Program-made: the position numbers and the translations under genes | Virus record (IMG/VR): IMGVR_UViG_3300045988_061090 | Source of the DNA: a virus | Length of the DNA stretch: 44,782 nt | Direction: 5' to 3' (one strand) | Shown: positions 10,201 through 34,434 of the stretch, piece by piece | Layout: each line of letters opens with the position of its first letter | How positions within the stretch are numbered: the stretch's first letter is position 1 | The notes under the pieces: generated by a model | Told to the model about the DNA's origin: nothing | Database searches by the model: none | Seen by the model: only the letters and a program-made list of their open reading frames with translations

Positions 10201-10393
10201 ATTTTTGACACCTCCTTTCTTAGCACACGTCCTTAATAGAAACGGCTTTATGCCGGAGGTTGAAAAGCGGGTGCAATTTCCGGCGTGTGCATTAGGCTTA
10301 TCGCATTGAGCCTGATAATCAATGTACGGGTCTACCGGTCAAATAGCACCTTTGAACGGGTTATAAATGTTCTGCCGCTGTTTGGCGGCATTT

Positions 10394-10466
10394 TGGGACA
10401 TAGCGCAGTTGGTAGAGCACCTGTCTTATACACAGCAAGTCCCCGGTTCGATTCCGGGTGTCCCGA
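10394..10466 (+). tRNA. tRNA with anticodon UAU (tRNA-Ile reading AUA), no encoded CCA
   Basis: A manual cloverleaf fits: acceptor tgggaca/tgtcccg (U1.G72), D arm gcgc-agttggta-gagc, anticodon arm cctgt-cTTATac-acagc (one C:C mismatch), variable loop aagtc, and T arm cccgg-ttcgatt-ccggg. Confidence 0.7.
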
Positions 10467-10545
10467 TTACCCCGACAGAGGTTTATCTGTCTGAATCCAT
10501 TACCGCTGACGGGCGGTTAATAAGTAGACGTTTAGGAGGATTATT

Positions 10546-27275: not shown

Positions 27276-29093
27276 ATGGGAAAAACAACCGGAATTGACG
27301 CTTCTGAATGGCAGAAGTCCATTGATTGGGCTTCTGTGAAGTCTCAGATTGATTTTGTTATCCTACGGGAAGGATACCGCAAGGCAGCGGACAAGTACTT
27401 TTTCCGAAACGTAGAGGGGTGCAAAAATAACCAGATACCCATCCATGGTGTGTATCATTTTCTTTACGCTCTAAATAACCAGGATGTGATCGCAGAAGCG
27501 GAAAGCTGCCTAGCCAATATTGAAAAGGCTGGGCTGCCTAAAACTATCTACGTTTGGGCGGATTTTGAATATGATACTGTCACTAATGCCGCCAAAAAAG
27601 GAGTCACACTTGGTCCCAATGAGTGCAATTTGTTTACTCAGACGTTTTGTGATTTCTTCAAGAAGAGAGGCTATAACACTGGAATATACACTAATGGAGA
27701 TTATTATAAACACTGGTACCGCCAAGATGTCCTGAACAAGTACCCCCTGTGGCTGGCGGATTATGAGGGAGGCCCGGATTACCATTGTCTCTACCAACAG
27801 TATACGAACAACGGCCAAATAACAGGAATTAACGGTAACATAGACATGAACTATTATTACGGCGATAAGGAAGAAACAAACATGGCGAAAGATTTGTGGA
27901 GCAAAACAGCGGAATTGATGGCAGCAGAATCTGGGTATCTGGAAAAAGCATCGGAAAGCAACCTGGACAGCAAGACCGGAAACGCGGGGTATGGGAACTA
28001 TACCAAGTATGCGAGAGACATCAATAACCTTGGCTTGATGGGATGTCAGGGACAGCCATGGTGTGCCGTATATCAATTTTGGATTAACTGGCAAATTTTC
28101 GGAAAAGAAAAAGCCCTTGACATCATGGGACCGGGATTTTATAACTGCACCAGTATCACAAATCATGCCAAATCCAAAGGCACCTGGCACAGTGAGCCAA
28201 AGCTTGGGGCCTTGGTGATCTTCCGAAATGGTGCACATATTGGCAGGGTGACAAAAATCACCTCTTCCCAGATCTACACCAACGAAGGGAATACCTCAAA
28301 AGGCGGTGTGAATAACGTAGAGGCAAATGGCGGCTGTGTGGCCGACAAAGTCTACACCCGGAATTACTCAGGGATTGATGGCTATGTGTGGATTGATTAT
28401 ACAGATTCTTCTGAGGCTGTTGTCCGGGATTATTTACAACTTGGAGATACTGGTCCCGCAGTAAAAACTATGCAGCAAAATTTGATTACTCTGGGCTTTG
28501 ATGTTGGTACACACGGGGCAGACGGCAGCTTTGGTCAAGACACGTTAGCAGCAGTAAAACAGGCACAAGAGCAGTATGGTCTTGCTGTAGATGGTTATTA
28601 CGGCCCGGATACCAAGGCAAAAATTGAGGATGCGATTGGGAAAGATTTTTTATGCGTAGGCGATCAAGGCAACCAAGTGGAAGAACTGCAAAGCAATCTG
28701 ATCTATTTAGGCTACGACTGTGGTGTGAGTGGTGCCGATGGAGATTTTGGTGCAGATACCGAGGCAGCTGTCAAAGCATTTCAGAAAACTTGCGGTTTAG
28801 ATGTCGACGGAAATGCAGGGCCGAAAACCCTGGAAAAAGTCAGCACAGAGGTGTACAAGCAGAAAAACACCCAGACAGGCTTCCAGCGCTTTGTGGGAGA
28901 GGTACAACAGACTTGTGCCGTCCATAAAAAGGCTAAGAAAGCATCTCCGGCCATTGCAGGATATCCCAAATTGGTTCCGGGCAATCTGGTGGATGTCTTA
29001 GGCCGAGCCGGTTATGAAAACAACTGGTACAAGGTCTGCGTGGCCGATCAGTACATAGGGTATGCTTGGGCGGATAGTATTAAAAGAGTATGA
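27276..29093 (+). CDS. Endolysin: GH25 muramidase + CHAP + 2x PG_binding_1 + SH3b-like
   Basis: The GH25 N-terminus reads GIDASEWQKSIDW..DFVILREGY. CHAP is indicated by QPWCAVYQFW ... GAHIGRV ... TNEGNTS. Two LxxGDxGxxVxxLQxxL..G...G.DG.FG..T..AVK.FQ repeats follow, then an SH3-like tail NNWYKVCV. Confidence 0.85.
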   Translation: MGKTTGIDASEWQKSIDWASVKSQIDFVILREGYRKAADKYFFRNVEGCKNNQIPIHGVYHFLYALNNQDVIAEAESCLANIEKAGLPKTIYVWADFEYDTVTNAAKKGVTLGPNECNLFTQTFCDFFKKRGYNTGIYTNGDYYKHWYRQDVLNKYPLWLADYEGGPDYHCLYQQYTNNGQITGINGNIDMNYYYGDKEETNMAKDLWSKTAELMAAESGYLEKASESNLDSKTGNAGYGNYTKYARDINNLGLMGCQGQPWCAVYQFWINWQIFGKEKALDIMGPGFYNCTSITNHAKSKGTWHSEPKLGALVIFRNGAHIGRVTKITSSQIYTNEGNTSKGGVNNVEANGGCVADKVYTRNYSGIDGYVWIDYTDSSEAVVRDYLQLGDTGPAVKTMQQNLITLGFDVGTHGADGSFGQDTLAAVKQAQEQYGLAVDGYYGPDTKAKIEDAIGKDFLCVGDQGNQVEELQSNLIYLGYDCGVSGADGDFGADTEAAVKAFQKTCGLDVDGNAGPKTLEKVSTEVYKQKNTQTGFQRFVGEVQQTCAVHKKAKKASPAIAGYPKLVPGNLVDVLGRAGYENNWYKVCVADQYIGYAWADSIKRV

Positions 29094-29166: not shown

Positions 29167-29196
29167 CCCCTGGGCTTATTGCTCAGGGGCTTTTTT
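29167..29196. terminator. Terminator after the endolysin gene, overlapping the 3' end of the minus-strand gene
   Basis: A 9-bp stem pairs cccctgggc with gctcagggg, followed by cTTTTTT on the + strand. Confidence 0.7.
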
Positions 29197-29502
29197 CCTT
29201 TCACGCCATTTTTTGATTGCTAAAGCGTTTTTACTCCTGTCTTCCGCGTATACGGGCCTAACTCTTGGCAGATAGGCTTGCACGGTTTTTACGTTTACTC
29301 CGACTTGCTTAGCTATTTGATCAACGCTCAATCCCTTTTCGTGTAATTGCATGATCTGATAATGCGTATAATTAATTGTAACGCCATTACTCGATAGAGA
29401 TTTGACAATTTTATTCCAGCTATATCCTGTTTCTTTGGATGCTCCCTTTACGGAGCCGGTTTTCTCAAAGCATTCTTTTATTATTTTATCTGATTTTTTC
29501 AT
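29176..29502 (-). CDS. Double-HTH DNA-binding protein
   Basis: 108 aa with two HTH-like segments (GSVKGASKETGYSWNKIVKSL; GLSVDQIAKQVGVNVKTVQAYL) and a basic tail. Confidence 0.6.
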   Translation of the reverse strand: MKKSDKIIKECFEKTGSVKGASKETGYSWNKIVKSLSSNGVTINYTHYQIMQLHEKGLSVDQIAKQVGVNVKTVQAYLPRVRPVYAEDRSKNALAIKKWRERKKAPEQ

Positions 29503-29680
29503 GATCTTTCCTTATGGTAATTTTATCTCCATCAAATTCCAGAGTTACCTCTCTATTTTCTTCTGTGATGCCCATCTCCCTGGCCCACGTGGTCGGGATA
29601 GTTACTCGGTTGGTGATACCTCCACTGCCGGCAGTACCACCGGATTTGTTAAAGATTACCTTCGCAATTTTTTTGTTCAT
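29486..29680 (-). CDS. AbrB/SpoVT/MazE-type looped-hinge-helix protein
   Basis: 64 aa with the motif RVTIPTTWAREMGITEENREVTLEFDGDKITIRK. Confidence 0.65.
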   Translation of the reverse strand: MNKKIAKVIFNKSGGTAGSGGITNRVTIPTTWAREMGITEENREVTLEFDGDKITIRKDHEKIR

Positions 29681-29713
29681 TCTTTTTCTCCTTGTAATTT
29701 TCTTTCTTCTAAT

Positions 29714-29884
29714 TTATATTCTCCTCACATTCACGACTTCTTCATCTGGACCGCTACAGAAAAATTTTAATGCTTCAATAACGGCTTCTTCTTCCATTCC
29801 TTCCGGTTTAATTTCTTGAACAGCATCTTTTCTAATTATCTCTCTTGATTCCCTGTCAATTACGTCATACATAAATTTCATCAT
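29714..29884 (-). CDS. Hypothetical 56-aa protein (below the ORF-track cutoff)
   Basis: Hand translation gives MMKFMYDVIDRESREIIRKDAVQEIKPEGMEEEAVIEALKFFCSGPDEEVVNVRRI. An AGGAGG RBS is present, and the start lies 3 nt after the upstream stop. Confidence 0.5.
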   Translation of the reverse strand: MMKFMYDVIDRESREIIRKDAVQEIKPEGMEEEAVIEALKFFCSGPDEEVVNVRRI

Positions 29885-29886
29885 TT

Positions 29887-30291
29887 TTATTTCCTCCTTA
29901 TTTTTTGTTCTCTTCTTCTATTCTCCTCTCTACTCACCATCTGATTAATAGAATAAGAGGAAAGCTTATCTCTCATATCAATAATAGTTGCAGCGTCATC
30001 AATCTGTGAGAGCATCTGCTCAAGAGACTCTCCGCATTCAACATAGCACTGTCTCTCAATCGCTCTGATACCAATCGTGTCTATTTTATCAATGTTAGCG
30101 ATATTATTTTTGATCGTCTCTCTTGCTTCTCTGATAATATCTTCGGCCCATTTAATCTGTTTTTCGGTTCCCTTCAATGTTTTCTTTGCCTCCTTCCATG
30201 CTTTTTTGAGTCCAGCAGAGATGGTCGTATCTAACTTTTTAACTAACTCCCATGCTCTTTTCATAATTGCTGATAAATTATATTTTTTCAT
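29887..30291 (-). CDS. Helical K/E-rich protein, unknown function
   Basis: 134 aa with RBS AAAGGAGGA. It is the first gene of the minus-strand operon. Confidence 0.55.
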   Translation of the reverse strand: MKKYNLSAIMKRAWELVKKLDTTISAGLKKAWKEAKKTLKGTEKQIKWAEDIIREARETIKNNIANIDKIDTIGIRAIERQCYVECGESLEQMLSQIDDAATIIDMRDKLSSYSINQMVSREENRRREQKIRRK

Positions 30292-30332
30292 CTCTGCGTC
30301 CTCCTTTTATCTTATCTCCTCTTGATGATTAT

Positions 30333-30361
30333 ATTATATATCATTCGTAACGAATAGTCAA
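30333..30361 (-). promoter_or_regulatory. Near-consensus sigma-A promoter with a palindromic operator in the spacer
   Basis: The minus strand reads TTGACT-attcgttacgaatgata(17)-TATAAT. The spacer contains the inverted repeat ATTCG-N3-CGAAT. Confidence 0.65.
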
Positions 30362-30563
30362 GAGGTTTTTAAGATTTTTTTGAAAGAAATATTGTATCAT
30401 CTTACTTTTACTTTTTAAAAATTATATTTCTATTTTAGACACATTTTAGACAAAAATGCTTGAAAATGGCTTAAAATCGTTCTTTAATGTTAAAAAAATA
30501 TTAATTTCTATATACTTTAAAAAAAGCTTTTAATTACAAGGAAAACGGCGCAAACCCTTGATT

Positions 30564-31787
30564 TTACGCCATTTTCTTGTCTTGTATTGTCTCGAATATT
30601 TGTTCTTTTTGAATTGATTTTGAGGTTCCATTTTCGACGCATTTTAGACACGGAATTTTCTCGATTTCTTTTCGGAGATCTTCTAGTGCCCTATGTCCGT
30701 ATACTTCATTTGTGACATCCATAAATTTGTGTCCCAACATTCTTTTTCGGTCATTTTCTTTTACCTCGTATTTTTCGCAAAGGGCTGAGAAAGTGTGCCG
30801 ACAGTCATGCGGTGTATGTTCTCCGATTCCGAGAGATTTGATGTAGGTCCTCATAGACTCTCGGAATTTGACATCAGATAAAGGCATTATTTCACCATAT
30901 TTCCTTATTCGTTTTTTGACAATCGGGTAAATAGCCGAGTGGATAGGGACGATTCGATCTTTACTTGTCCTTGTTTTCAAGCCACCCGAAAAGAAACATT
31001 TTTTTAGATCAGTTTTTATAACTTTCAATTCTCCGATACGATACCCTGTATAACACATAATTAGGAGTACTTGGGCAATATCATTGTCTTCATGATTCCA
31101 CAGTCGTTCTATATCTCGGATACTAAACGGAACCCCGTGCTCATCATCGTCTGGAATATTGATGCGCAGCAGCTCTGTAGGATTTTTTTCTATAAAGTTT
31201 TGAGCTAAAGCATATTTAAACATCTGCTTTAGGAGTGATACTATCAATTCCAGACTGGCGTGTTTAAGCGTAGAAGCGTCTACAATGCGTTGTAATTGCT
31301 CATAGGTGATATTCTTTACCTTCTCCCCATGAATGGCTTCACAGTTCTTGTACGCAGCCCTGGTGGACCTTTTGGATTGATCAGAATATTGTTTCTTCCC
31401 ATCATATTTCCATGTATAGTATTTTTCGTATAATTGAGTAAAAGTCATGTGACCCTTATCTTCTTGGACCGGACGTACTGCTATAGTGTAATCTGCAAGG
31501 ATTCGTTTAGTAAACCCATGTAAGTCCCCATCATCCATGGCACGCATGATTTCCAGCTCTTTTTCTAGCCCTGGTTTATAAGTACCAGCCTTGTAAGCCA
31601 TCAGAACCGAGAAACCTACATACCAATCAGATACATAGCATAAAGCTTTGGGAGTTACTGGTTTCCCATCTTCACCAAAGTCTTTCACAGGTGGGTGTAC
31701 TGCGTAAGCGACATTACGGTTTCCAGATAGTTTGCGGATACTGCCAAAACCATTAGGGAGATTTGGGTGTTTCTTCCTTTTTGCCAT
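30564..31787 (-). CDS. int: Tyrosine recombinase (phage integrase)
   Basis: The start MAKRKKHPNLPNGFG (ATG 31787) follows AGGAGG. Catalytic motifs are YTGYRIGEL, HDCRHTF and LGH...VYGHR. Confidence 0.9.
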   Translation of the reverse strand: MAKRKKHPNLPNGFGSIRKLSGNRNVAYAVHPPVKDFGEDGKPVTPKALCYVSDWYVGFSVLMAYKAGTYKPGLEKELEIMRAMDDGDLHGFTKRILADYTIAVRPVQEDKGHMTFTQLYEKYYTWKYDGKKQYSDQSKRSTRAAYKNCEAIHGEKVKNITYEQLQRIVDASTLKHASLELIVSLLKQMFKYALAQNFIEKNPTELLRINIPDDDEHGVPFSIRDIERLWNHEDNDIAQVLLIMCYTGYRIGELKVIKTDLKKCFFSGGLKTRTSKDRIVPIHSAIYPIVKKRIRKYGEIMPLSDVKFRESMRTYIKSLGIGEHTPHDCRHTFSALCEKYEVKENDRKRMLGHKFMDVTNEVYGHRALEDLRKEIEKIPCLKCVENGTSKSIQKEQIFETIQDKKMA

Positions 31788-31944
31788 AAAATCATCCTCC
31801 TTTTGGGTATAAAAATAACAGCCAGCGCGAACGAGTGTTCCGCTTGCGGGGGCTGTCCGAAGATGATACAATATTACCGACCAAAGTAATAGCATATCTT
31901 CGGATATGTGGCCGCTCCTGTTGGCGCAGGGGCGGTTTTTACGT

Positions 31945-31973
31945 TTGACAAATAGTTTGCTTTGACATATAAT
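31945..31973 (+). promoter_or_regulatory. Perfect consensus promoter for the antitoxin sRNA
   Basis: The sequence reads TTGACA-aatagtttgctttgaca(17)-TATAAT. Confidence 0.7.
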
Positions 31974-31979
31974 ATACTT

Positions 31980-32086
31980 AACAAGACAGCCGACAGGTAG
32001 GTGCAAGCTACCCGTTCCGGCGAATTAAAACGAACTTAGTAAGCCGTCCTATCCGACCAAGATACAGGGCGGCTTACTTATTTTTC
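31980..32086 (+). ncRNA. Candidate type I antitoxin sRNA (~105 nt), convergent with the toxin gene
   Basis: It would start about 7 nt after the -10 and end at a 12-bp-stem terminator (32039-32050 / 32066-32077) followed by ttattttt. Its 3' end is antisense to the toxin's last codons. Confidence 0.5.
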
Positions 32087-32154
32087 AAATTTAGAATAGC
32101 AACAACAAGCAATGAGAATGTAAGTAAAATTTGCATTTCCTCATATGTACTCAT
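32074..32154 (-). CDS. 26-aa hydrophobic peptide, holin-like type I toxin family
   Basis: Hand translation gives MSTYEEMQILLTFSLLVVAILNLKNK. RBS is AAAGGGGA. It resembles the Firmicutes putative holin-like toxin family (MS.YE.l.lm..F..l.v). Confidence 0.6.
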   Translation of the reverse strand: MSTYEEMQILLTFSLLVVAILNLKNK

Positions 32155-32303
32155 AAGTATTTCCCCTTTCCGCAAGACTCGGAACGGGAACCAGCACGCC
32201 CCTCGGCTGCCCGGGTAAGTATATTATATTGTCAAGGTGCTGCCCCTACGGTTGGATGGACGTAGGGGCGCGATAATATTCAATTAAGCATATGTATAGA
32301 TGG

Positions 32304-32966
32304 TTATTTATTAATGACAAATTTTATGTCATTTGCTGACCAAAAATCTGGTGAAACATTAATTTCAAAGTTTGAATAACTCACCGGAACTTGATAAGCG
32401 ATCACTCCATTCATTTTCTTTCCAGCGGCAACACTTCCATCGAGTTGATTTTTGCCTTCTATTTCAGGAGCTTGTAATCCGAGTAAGTCTTGATTTAGAG
32501 AATAATCATCACAATATGCTTCAAAGTTTGCGACAGAACTTATATTGATATCTGAACCAGAATTATTAACAATTTCAAATTCAAGAAGTAAAAAAATGTT
32601 TCCTTCGTCTGGGGTTACATATTCACTCCCTTGTGATTCAGTTGCTGATATAAGTGTGACTTGAATATCTTTTTGTTCTGCTGTTTCGCCTACGCTAAAT
32701 TCAGTTTTTTCTTCTTTCTCTGGTTCTTCTGTATTTTGTGTTTCTTTATTTGTTGAATTTTCTGTGTTTTTTGGTTCCGTTGTTTCTACTTTTTTAGGAG
32801 TGTCGTCCCCACCGGCAGCAGCTCCAATAATTGCAATTACAATTACTATAATTATAATCCATTTCAGTTTTCCACCTTGTTTTTTTCGACAATTAGGACA
32901 CACTTTTGCATCAGCAGGTATTTCAGACTTGCAATGCTTACATAATTTTGTTTTTTTCTTTTCCAT
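32304..32966 (-). CDS. Zn-ribbon - TM - DUF4352-like extracellular domain protein
   Basis: The order is CKHC..CPNC, then a TM segment (WIIIIVIVIAIIGAAA), a T/E/K-rich linker, and a beta-rich domain (IFLLLEFEIVNNS..VAAGKKMNGVIAYQVP). Confidence 0.65.
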   Translation of the reverse strand: MEKKKTKLCKHCKSEIPADAKVCPNCRKKQGGKLKWIIIIVIVIAIIGAAAGGDDTPKKVETTEPKNTENSTNKETQNTEEPEKEEKTEFSVGETAEQKDIQVTLISATESQGSEYVTPDEGNIFLLLEFEIVNNSGSDINISSVANFEAYCDDYSLNQDLLGLQAPEIEGKNQLDGSVAAGKKMNGVIAYQVPVSYSNFEINVSPDFWSANDIKFVINK

Positions 32967-33015
32967 AAGTTTTCCTCCTAATGGTAATATTTATTAAAAC
33001 GCCGTAGCGGTTTAA

Positions 33016-33735
33016 TCAGCTATTCGCTATGTCAATTAGAGATAATAGCTTTTCCCTATCCCACAACTTTACACCAAGCATTTCAGCTTCTTCTTTTGCC
33101 TGTGGAGTAAAATCTCTATTAGTCAGTACAACAGCAATGTCTTTTTTATAGATGCTTTTACCTGTATGTGCTTGTTGTACAGCAGCATTTCCAATATTTC
33201 CAGTATAACATTTCGTTTGTATGGCATAACTAATATCATCTTTCTCCGCTAAAATGTCTATTCCATGATCTCCACTCCCTCTAGTTACCTCTACATTTTT
33301 AAACCCATTCTTCTTTAGTAGATCGGCACAATAGTGTTCAAATCTATGTCCGTCCATACTATCAAAATTTTGATCTTTAGCTTTGGAATCTTCGGAATTT
33401 TCGGAATCAATAGGAGGGTTGACATATCTAAATCCAAGATGTCCACGGTTTTGTGTTTGATTATTATTGGAGCTAGGTCTATTTATTAATAGACGGTTAT
33501 TTTTCCCCATAAGGAATTTAATAATCTTTTTTGCACACCAATAAATTACATCAAATGGGATAACAAAAAAAATGAAAAATATAATCATCATCCCAAACCA
33601 GTCAAATAATGCGACTTTTTGACCATCTATTTCGCTGTGCATAAAAGCAACTCCAAATATCAAAATCAGACATATTGATGGAATTGGGCATAAAAATTTA
33701 AAATATTTGTTTTTGTATATATTAGTAATTTTCAT
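33016..33735 (-). CDS. Membrane-anchored Mrr_cat-type restriction-endonuclease-fold protein
   Basis: Two N-terminal TM segments precede a C-terminal FEHYCADLLKKNGF..GSGDHGIDILAEKDD..YAIQTKCY motif (D..D-x-QxK). Confidence 0.65.
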   Translation of the reverse strand: MKITNIYKNKYFKFLCPIPSICLILIFGVAFMHSEIDGQKVALFDWFGMMIIFFIFFVIPFDVIYWCAKKIIKFLMGKNNRLLINRPSSNNNQTQNRGHLGFRYVNPPIDSENSEDSKAKDQNFDSMDGHRFEHYCADLLKKNGFKNVEVTRGSGDHGIDILAEKDDISYAIQTKCYTGNIGNAAVQQAHTGKSIYKKDIAVVLTNRDFTPQAKEEAEMLGVKLWDREKLLSLIDIANS

Positions 33736-33772
33736 CTTAAGGTACCGAGAAATTTAAATATTTCCTTTCCTG

Positions 33773-34000
33773 TTATTTACTATGAGCAGCACTTTCTATT
33801 GATTGAACAGTAAATTTGTCAAAATCGTTATTTAGAATATGCCCCATGGCGTGCTCATAAGCTTCTAGTCTTCCAATATCAGATAATCTAGCGTTTATAA
33901 ATATAGTATAACTTCCATCCTCATTTGGATGAATCATTTCTCTTCCTCTACAAGGAAAATCTACTATTTGTAAATTAATAATCGGTTCCATCCTCTCCAC
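33773..34000 (-). CDS. Short ImmA/IrrE-like protein with non-canonical metal motif
   Basis: 75 aa. TIFINARLS...AYEHAMGHILNNDFD resembles the short ImmA-like proteins found next to XRE repressors, but it reads EHxxGH rather than HExxH. Confidence 0.45.
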   Translation of the reverse strand: MERMEPIINLQIVDFPCRGREMIHPNEDGSYTIFINARLSDIGRLEAYEHAMGHILNNDFDKFTVQSIESAAHSK

Positions 34001-34361
34001 GCTCCTTACGTTTTAGAGCGAGAGCCATTTGGTGTAATGCTTTTAAGTCTTGGGGTTCCATGTCTCTTTGTACGTCAAATAGCGCTCGTAATTCTTTGTT
34101 CTCAAATATTTCTTGGGCTACCTGGGCAGTCTCATCATTAAGATAGTACCTTTCTCCTTCTTTTTCTTCTCCGGTCATAAGATAATCAACAGATACTCCA
34201 AAATAATCCGCTATTTGCTGGAGTTTTGTCGCAGTAGGGACAGTCCCTTTTGTTCGGAATTTCCCAATATATCCACGGCCAAAACCCAACTCTTTTTCGA
34301 GTGCTGTAATGGCTATTCCGTGTTGATTACATAACTTAGCAATTATTTCATATGTTGTCAC
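33975..34361 (-). CDS. CI-like XRE-family repressor
   Basis: GTG 34361 follows AGGAGGA. The HTH is ITALEKELGFGRGYIGKF...KLQQIADYFGVSVDYL, with a C-terminal dimerisation-like tail. Confidence 0.8.
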   Translation of the reverse strand: MTTYEIIAKLCNQHGIAITALEKELGFGRGYIGKFRTKGTVPTATKLQQIADYFGVSVDYLMTGEEKEGERYYLNDETAQVAQEIFENKELRALFDVQRDMEPQDLKALHQMALALKRKERGEDGTDY

Positions 34362-34381
34362 AGTATCCTCCTTTTTTAAAA

Positions 34382-34397
34382 GTAGAAAAAAATCTAC
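34382..34397. promoter_or_regulatory. Operator O1 (GTAGAAAAAAATCTAC palindrome)
   Basis: A perfect 5-N6-5 inverted repeat abutting the -35 of the + promoter. It is identical to O2. Confidence 0.6.
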
Positions 34398-34405
34398 AAA
34401 AACTA

Positions 34406-34434
34406 TTGACAACGTAGAAAATAGGCTATATAAT
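34406..34434 (+). promoter_or_regulatory. Perfect consensus rightward promoter
   Basis: The sequence reads TTGACA-acgtagaaaataggcta(17)-TATAAT. The spacer carries an ACGTAGA half-site. Confidence 0.7.

Follow-up and report, generated by a model that had tools for sequence, protein, structure and literature searches.

The window analysed here is the whole 44,782-nt stretch of the IMG/VR virus record IMGVR_UViG_3300045988_061090. In it, the 516-nt gap that runs from the start codon of a tyrosine integrase gene to the gene of a DUF4352 protein is filled by two RNA-encoding units. One of them (31945-32235), located in the lysogeny region of the phage, is very probably a type I toxin-antitoxin (TA) module of the TxpA/BsrG (Hol_Tox) kind. 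The other, which stands directly upstream of the integrase (int) gene, is separate from the TA module. Neither the peptide nor the small RNA (sRNA) of the TA module is called by annotation pipelines.

A convergent pair of putative toxin and sRNA genes

The module is made up of the following features, where SD stands for Shine-Dalgarno sequence, ORF for open reading frame, UTR for untranslated region and aa for amino acids.

31945-31973, plus strand: sRNA promoter TTGACA-17-TATAAT, with the -35 box at 31945-31950, a 17-nt spacer and the -10 box at 31968-31973; 12/12 match to the consensus
31980..32086, plus strand: antitoxin-type sRNA of about 105 nt; covariance-model match at 31980-32084 (79.9 bits, E 5.7e-17)
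31989-32021, plus strand: two-helix stem-loop at the 5′ end of the sRNA
32038-32049 / 32067-32078, plus strand: stem of the sRNA terminator, 12 bp with one G-U pair, followed by TATTTTT; U-run at 32079-32086
32074..32154, minus strand: ORF of the putative 26-aa toxin, MSTYEEMQILLTFSLLVVAILNLKNK, Pfam Hol_Tox; stop codon at 32074-32076
32163-32171, minus strand: toxin SD GGAAAGGGG, 8 nt upstream of the ATG
32155..32216, minus strand: 5′ UTR of the toxin mRNA (62 nt), with a predicted start near 32216; anti-SD at 32180-32190
32223..32235, minus strand: toxin promoter region, with the -10 box TATAAT at 32228..32223 and TTGACA before it
31967-31993 / 32203-32229: arms of an inverted repeat, 27 nt, 85% complementary
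32242..32269: GC-rich hairpin GCCCCTACG / CGTAGGGGC, without a U-run, between the DUF4352 gene and the toxin promoter

An earlier note on this DNA, made from the letters alone, had pointed to an unannotated minus-strand ORF with a ribosome-binding site (RBS), and both are present. Its suggestion that the product resembles the small holin-like toxin family was borne out by a hidden Markov model (HMM) search, in which Pfam Hol_Tox (PF16935) matched residues 1-24 of the peptide with 25.8 bits (gathering score 23.3, E 9.7e-6). The same family was matched at E<0.01 by 17 of 20 homologous peptides, and an alignment of 20 variants preserved the build of the peptide, with its hydrophobic core ILLTFSLLVVAIL and its basic C-terminal KNK. 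More than 100 loci, at an amino-acid identity of about 50%, preserve the ORF's frame, start codon, SD and length (25-31 aa) as well as its hydrophobic core and basic C-terminus, and its variable sites, counted by codon position (16/10/20 and 11/3/16), favour the third position. The exact peptide occurs in the public collection as a single record, an unnamed JGI/IMG entry, and phrog_9488, a family without assigned function, gave a weak match to it. The assignment of the peptide as a putative single-helix membrane toxin of the TxpA/BsrG-like type is supported.

The perfect-consensus plus-strand promoter announced by the same note was recovered as the sole perfect match among six promoter-like sites in the scanned interval 31000-33200. 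All homologous loci have in common TTGAC(A/T), a spacer of 16-17 nt and TATAAT. At the sequence level, the RNA of about 105 nt that this promoter was expected to launch also held up: it is recognised by a covariance model as a conserved structured RNA, and the 3′ arm of its 12-bp terminator stem contains the toxin stop codon. The predicted 109-nt RNA folded at -36.3 kcal/mol (z = -4.9), and 0/200 shuffled sequences folded as well. The plus strand was identified as that of the folded RNA because many G-U pairs fit this strand only and because the terminator was more stable on it in 18 of 21 loci, with a mean advantage of 4.5 kcal/mol.

The same arrangement recurs well beyond the window. Promoter, sRNA, terminator and a convergent ORF of 25-31 aa were found together, beside integrases, in 25 sequences (the window included) that were retrieved through a conserved 19-mer in the neighbouring DNA. 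In these loci the sRNA starts with AACA(A/G)GA(C/U)AGCCG, the stop codon of the ORF lies within the terminator and the ORF belongs to the types MSTYEEL.., MSTYEEF.., M(V/I)TYDELF.. and MYVTYD.... A second, independent scan from the sRNA start yielded more than 110 further loci from Lachnospiraceae and other Clostridia, nearly all of them with the ORF and a few visibly degraded, which brings the total to more than 130 independent loci. Since only 11 of 111 loci adjoin the integrase unit, the TA module is an independent element. The covariance model, built from 19 sequences, retrieved 124 sRNA copies in 100 sources. In the alignment of the 124 copies, 96.4% of the cells were paired compared with 81.5% after shuffling, a percentage that is inflated by the fitting of the alignment to the model. 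The covariation score was 0.534 against 0.244 for shuffled alignments (0/500 as high) and no more than 0.12 with the pairing partners slid, and changes on both sides were found in 19 of the 20 pairs. The same helices had been obtained earlier with a MAFFT-based RNAalifold analysis. Recurrence in more than 130 independent loci, together with this covariation, places the module beyond chance.

Tandem arrays of three or four TA copies, about 300-700 nt apart, occur in several Clostridia genomes (L257 4643-5956; L280 6728-7456; L294 2913-4181; L252 5591-6301). At L285 5703-6365, labelled Ruminococcus bromii, the partner convergent to the sRNA is not a Hol_Tox peptide but a 51-aa ORF with two helices.

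The toxin SD is predicted to be sequestered by the structure of its own mRNA. In the centroid fold of the leader, UUCCCGUUCCG is paired with CGGAAAGGGG (anti-SD with SD), and the consensus structure of 17 toxin leaders retains this helix, with double changes in 7 of 11 pairs. The toxin promoter has no -35 box at 17 nt, the GC hairpin occupying that place; homologous toxin promoters have AATAAT or TATAAT and likewise lack a -35 box. Differing GC hairpins stand at the same place in other loci, several of them followed by a plus-strand T-run, and such hairpins may serve to block antisense transcription that reads through from the two sRNA promoters of the plus strand. The inverted repeat that the earlier note had seen around the module is real and, at 27 nt, longer than it had stated. 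It is not a mere frame, as each arm takes in the -10 box, the start site and the initial ~14 nt of one or the other convergent RNA, an arrangement that is conserved elsewhere. The 5′ ends of the sRNA and of the toxin mRNA show same-sense similarity in all homologous loci, and the 5′ domain of the sRNA includes the anti-SD of the toxin leader.

Mode of action, known relatives and rival explanations

The sequence features of the module, its family membership and its conservation are matters of observation. As far as sequence can show it, two predicted transcription units converge in the module from promoters of very different strength, they have a 3′ hairpin in common, and the toxin SD is sequestered. 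In the mechanism proposed, the weak promoter, which has only a -10 box, would give rise to a minus-strand toxin mRNA of about 190 nt, and the upstream anti-SD in its 62-nt leader would pair with the SD and keep translation of the 26-aa peptide low. The consensus promoter would produce an abundant sRNA of about 105 nt, whose terminator would also serve as the toxin gene's 3′ end. The two RNAs would be fully complementary over the shared terminator, that is, over about 55-60 nt if the toxin mRNA ends there and over the whole sRNA if transcription reads through. If the module works as txpA/RatA and bsrG/SR4 do, the paired RNAs would undergo cleavage of the RNase III type and the toxin mRNA would be lost; were the phage to be lost or the sRNA no longer made, the toxin mRNA, being longer-lived, would be set free.

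The convergent, 3′-overlapping layout had already been likened to txpA/RatA and bsrG/SR4 in the earlier note, and the comparison is strengthened by a conserved, structured sRNA and by the predicted sequestration of the toxin SD, as in txpA, bsrG and bsrE of B. subtilis, where SD sequestration is combined with 3′ overlaps of 100-140 bp (PMC6562991). Like txpA/RatA of the skin element and bsrG/SR4 of the SPbeta prophage, the module has a small single-helix toxin beginning M-S/T-T/V-Y-E, a prophage location, a convergent antisense RNA over the toxin mRNA's 3′ end, an SD buried in a few GC pairs and an antitoxin promoter stronger than the toxin promoter (PMC6562991). It differs from these systems in that its two RNAs share homologous -10 boxes and 5′ ends, and in that the sRNA has no sequence or Rfam similarity to RatA, SR4 or BsrG RNA. 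The toxins of txpA and bsrG have 59 and 38 aa, whereas the toxin here is much shorter (26 aa) and is accompanied by an sRNA of about 105 nt.

Other relatives share part of this layout. The TxpA family has members in Clostridiales, proteins annotated 'holin-like toxin' included (PMC2887945, Fozo et al.), and its relative EF3263 from Enterococcus faecalis is accompanied by an RNA of ~110 nt complementary to the toxin 3′ UTR (PMC2887945). By description, the size and layout of the sRNA at that locus are about equal to those found here; the Lachnospiraceae sRNA family has no curated model. The par locus of pAD1 (fst RNA I/RNA II) also combines convergent units, one bidirectional terminator and repeat-related 5′ regions, but the toxin here is not Fst-like (the profile search gave no Fst match). 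The par repeats have direct orientation at the DNA level, which makes the 5′ ends of its two RNAs complementary, whereas the repeats here are inverted and the 5′ ends therefore have the same sense. SprG1/SprF1 of Staphylococcus aureus, which encodes PepG1, is likewise a type I toxin with a 3′-overlapping antisense RNA. PepG1 (NF041589) was the only NCBIfam model to match the peptides, but it did so with 14.5 and 16.9 bits, below its cut-off of 70, and the two are not equivalogs. The TA module is an additional TxpA/BsrG-like member whose sRNA has no Rfam family: a search of the region and of 15 related loci gave none at gathering score, nor any at E<0.1.

Several points weigh against this assignment. 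[quoted passage not shown] The assured overlap, about 55-60 nt, is less than the 100-140 bp of the B. subtilis systems (PMC6562991). The peptide covers only positions 1-24 of the 34-position Hol_Tox profile, and the best relevant Rfam match to the sRNA, BsrG (RF01412), reached 13.4 bits against a threshold of 55.

The same architecture could also work in another way, in which repression would depend mainly on the 5′ stem-loop of the sRNA, outside the overlap, and not on the 3′ overlap. A copy of the anti-SD in that stem-loop, CCCGUUCCGG, would pair with the toxin SD in trans and block translation, in the manner of SprA1AS of S. aureus and of the 5′ repeats of RNA II in par. The 5′ domain of the sRNA and the toxin leader are same-sense homologues, the best sRNA/SD duplex falls consistently at sRNA positions ~23-46 and the CUUGCGGAAAGGGG region, and in some loci (L067, L081 and L080) strong duplexes of -24 to -32 kcal/mol came out, in each case, ahead of all those with non-cognate partners. 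Overall, however, the pairing was without cognate specificity (-19.3 vs -18.5 kcal/mol), its mean z against shuffled sRNA was only -0.9, and a covarying stem of the sRNA itself ties up the segment, so that this route is unlikely to be the principal one. A lower probability still attaches to a role of the peptide as a small prophage membrane protein for superinfection exclusion, abortive infection or lysis timing, the level of which would be tuned by the antisense RNA, with no post-segregational toxin involved. Its position in the lysogeny module among accessory genes (Mrr_cat nuclease-like, DUF4352), a family name that says merely 'putative holin-like' and the variation with host of the toxicity of TxpA-family members (PMC2887945) would fit such a role. 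A weak toxin promoter, a sequestered SD and a strong convergent antisense promoter are, by contrast, the defining architecture of type I TA systems; the module is mostly found away from phage integrases (11/111 adjoin one) and in tandem arrays, like chromosomal type I TA loci, and lysis genes of the phage itself lie at a distance of 3 kb. It is hardly credible that the ORF is a chance frame opposite a stand-alone regulatory sRNA: it is very short and the exact peptide is nameless in the public collection, but its retention in more than 100 loci and an HMM match above threshold speak against chance.

Taken as a type I TA module, the more than 130 loci and the covariance model document an unannotated, widespread subfamily of such systems in dominant human-gut Firmicutes and their phages. 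Type I TA modules can stabilise prophages, as has been shown in Clostridioides difficile (PMC7699646). Such modules are useful as counter-selection tools.

A small-RNA unit upstream of the integrase

The features of the second unit lie between the integrase start codon and the sRNA promoter of the TA module.

31818-31856 and 31817..31807, minus strand: hairpin 1 and its U-tract, resembling an intrinsic terminator, directly upstream of the int RBS
31844-31872, plus strand: promoter of small RNA 1, with the -35 box TTGCGG at 31844-31849, a 17-nt spacer and the extended -10 box TGaTACAAT at 31864-31872
31879..31940, plus strand: small RNA 1, about 62 nt, with a variable 5′ tail, a C(UUCG)G hairpin at 31892-31909 and a terminator at 31910-31937 followed by a U-run
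31858-31905: 'hairpin 2', a predicted fold that pairs the small RNA 1 promoter with the RNA driven by that promoter
31857..31872, minus strand: segment b, the minus-strand RNA copy of the small RNA 1 promoter, UGUAUCAUCUUCGG, complementary to 31894-31905 and to the int initiation region
31802..31790, minus strand: integrase initiation region GGAGGAUGAU

This unit is the more unusual and less expected result of the analysis. In a BLAST search of the phage collection the TA module found no matches and only 31802-31957 was matched, always directly upstream of the integrase start in phages of R. gnavus, Blautia and Roseburia. More than 120 genome contigs contain the 19-mer CCGAAGATGATACAATATT, 119 viral contigs were retrieved with an independent anchor placed in hairpin 1, and the unit as a whole was collected from more than 200 Lachnospiraceae loci (L001-L243). 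Roughly half of the loci have a tyrosine integrase gene to the left of the unit and the others a gene for a large serine recombinase, assignments that Pfam confirmed on representatives. The presence of one small-RNA/terminator cassette before two unrelated recombinase families points to a shared, undescribed control of integrase expression at the RNA level. Like the sRNA, the unit had no Rfam match in the region or in the 15 related loci.

Three further hairpins had been described in the earlier note between the TA module and the int RBS. They are indeed predicted, at 31818-31856, 31858-31905 and 31910-31937, but they lie outside the TA module and are not three hairpins of one RNA. The note was right to regard the first as a minus-strand terminator just before int: across more than 200 loci with varying stems, hairpin 1 was more stable on the minus strand in 124 of the 156 informative ones, against 32 for the plus strand (p 3e-15). 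The -35 TTG of the small RNA 1 promoter lies in the unpaired 3′ side of this hairpin. Among the viral loci found with the independent anchor, TGnTAnnnT occurs in 111 of 114, and TTG is placed exactly 17 nt upstream in ~110 of these 111, whatever the length of hairpin 1. The two-hairpin fold of small RNA 1 was found in about 85 distinct sequences. The stem of its UUCG hairpin has a covariation score of 0.441 compared with 0.209 after shuffling (0/500), and G-U-type pairs, which fit the plus strand only, outnumber A-C-type pairs in it by 86 to 19. The terminator of small RNA 1, also called by a separate terminator prediction, is more stable on the plus strand in all 147 loci compared. When the window was searched for a trans target of the variable tail, only the cis-antisense site stood out, and no convincing -35/-10 pair of a minus-strand int promoter was seen by eye between hairpin 1 and the RBS.

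Two other identities were considered for the unit and rejected. An attachment site (attP) or a fragment of a host gene was discarded because the unit serves two unrelated recombinase families and the mapped attP lies elsewhere: the attP core of phiRgPS6, mapped experimentally (PMC10072058), is at L002 1670-1690, beyond the 3′ end of int, and the unit of that phage, at L002 3001-3153, is 1.3 kb off. A small ORF in the small RNA 1 region was rejected as well, its frame not being conserved and the inserted hairpins of varied length arguing against coding.

As no stop codon closes the integrase frame upstream of the start, the frame stays open across the RNA unit; the ORF of the window, counted from TTG 32006, is 480 aa long (30564-32006). 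In Ruminococcus phage RG-TP1, the deposited integrase coding sequence gp42 (L001 1569-3173) is ~200 nt too long and spans the unit. The unit explains such mis-annotated, over-long integrase genes in deposited phage genomes. In Sellimonas intestinalis, a skipping-rope RNA (RF02924, 43 bits) lies at L035 6428-6507, about 0.7 kb from the integrase unit.

In 'hairpin 2', the spacer of the small RNA 1 promoter is paired with the 5′ half and the loop of the UUCG hairpin, a pairing that requires a transcript running across the promoter, in other words a leftward leader. It covaries between loci (CCTGGAAGA with TCTTCCAG, CCTTATGGA with CCATAAGG and GCTCCGAATGATAC with GTATCATTCGGAGC), and cognate pairing exceeded non-cognate pairing (p 5e-13, or p 2e-4 with one sequence per group; sequence relatedness inflates the p-values of the switch tests). 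Segment b is in addition complementary to the integrase initiation region GGAGGAUGAUAC, with a mean duplex energy of -11.7 kcal/mol (z -3.1) and an advantage of 2.2 kcal/mol for cognate over non-cognate duplexes. Of 177 integrase initiation regions, 129 (73%) contain the motif [GA]TGAT, compared with 253 of 1984 control gene starts (13%). Folding of 135 distinct leaders was performed under three conditions. The mean probability that the int SD is unpaired was 0.35 in the free leader, 0.15 when the part complementary to the small RNA was blocked and again 0.35 when this part was blocked and the promoter-derived segment shuffled. The block reduced this probability in 82 leaders and increased it in 3; for the leader of the window, it dropped from 0.43 to 0.11. 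A switch driven by the antisense RNA that would close the integrase SD is plausible and has support in silico only.

It is conceivable, though put forward tentatively, that Lachnospiraceae phages share a portable, hitherto undescribed unit for integrase control, composed of an insulating terminator, a leader switch and an antisense RNA, and that 31790-31945 is one copy of it. Hairpin 1, as a leftward terminator, would insulate int from the repressor operon. In the leader of read-through transcripts, segment b would have a choice of partners: with segment a, which lies upstream, it would make the long 'hairpin 2' and the int SD would stay accessible; with the int SD region, it would shut translation. 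The divergent antisense RNA of ~62 nt, transcribed from the promoter that is the DNA copy of b, would bind a and shift the leader to its SD-closed form, so that the integrase stays off in lysogens. Such a design would resemble the countertranscript attenuation of rep in pT181 and pIP501, with the antisense RNA gene located in the leader of the regulated gene and a terminator directly upstream of the RBS. By inspection, no conserved partner was found for either arm of hairpin 1 that would give an alternative pairing able to prevent the terminator. Unlike in pT181 and pIP501, the conserved alternative pairing here involves the integrase SD, with one segment pairing either of two partners. An earlier candidate RNA motif, Lacto-int, was found beside phage integrases in Lactobacillales (PMC2864571); Lacto-int has no Rfam model and is likened by description only, and the unit here serves tyrosine and serine integrases alike.

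The phage genome around the two units

The window looks like a complete temperate phage genome of the Lachnospiraceae type, with the following arrangement.

up to ~29.1 kb, plus strand: structural and lysis genes
27276-29093, plus strand: endolysin (GH25 and CHAP)
29176-34412, minus strand: lysogeny block, leftward
30564..31787, minus strand: tyrosine integrase gene, ATG at 31787, Pfam Phage_integrase
32304..32966, minus strand: gene of a DUF4352 protein, lysogeny block
33016..33735, minus strand: gene of an Mrr_cat nuclease-like protein, lysogeny block
33975..34412, minus strand: HTH_3 repressor gene, lysogeny block
from 34934, plus strand: early genes, rightward

None of the deposited phages is closely related to the window, and DNA resembling the region was not found in the plasmid collection. 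The Mrr_cat restriction-endonuclease-like protein is membrane-anchored and may have a role in defence or exclusion. Between the endolysin and the 3′ end of the integrase gene, four small leftward genes (29176-30291) include those of a helix-turn-helix (HTH) protein and of a MazE/AbrB-like protein of 64 aa. They are followed by a gap of 270 nt (30292-30563) which, by analogy with phiRgPS6, is the likely place of attP. Far from the lysogeny block, a RAGATH-21 RNA (10222-10291, plus strand) scored 83 bits, above threshold, about 100 nt upstream of a tRNA-Ile(TAT) gene (10393-10467, plus strand).

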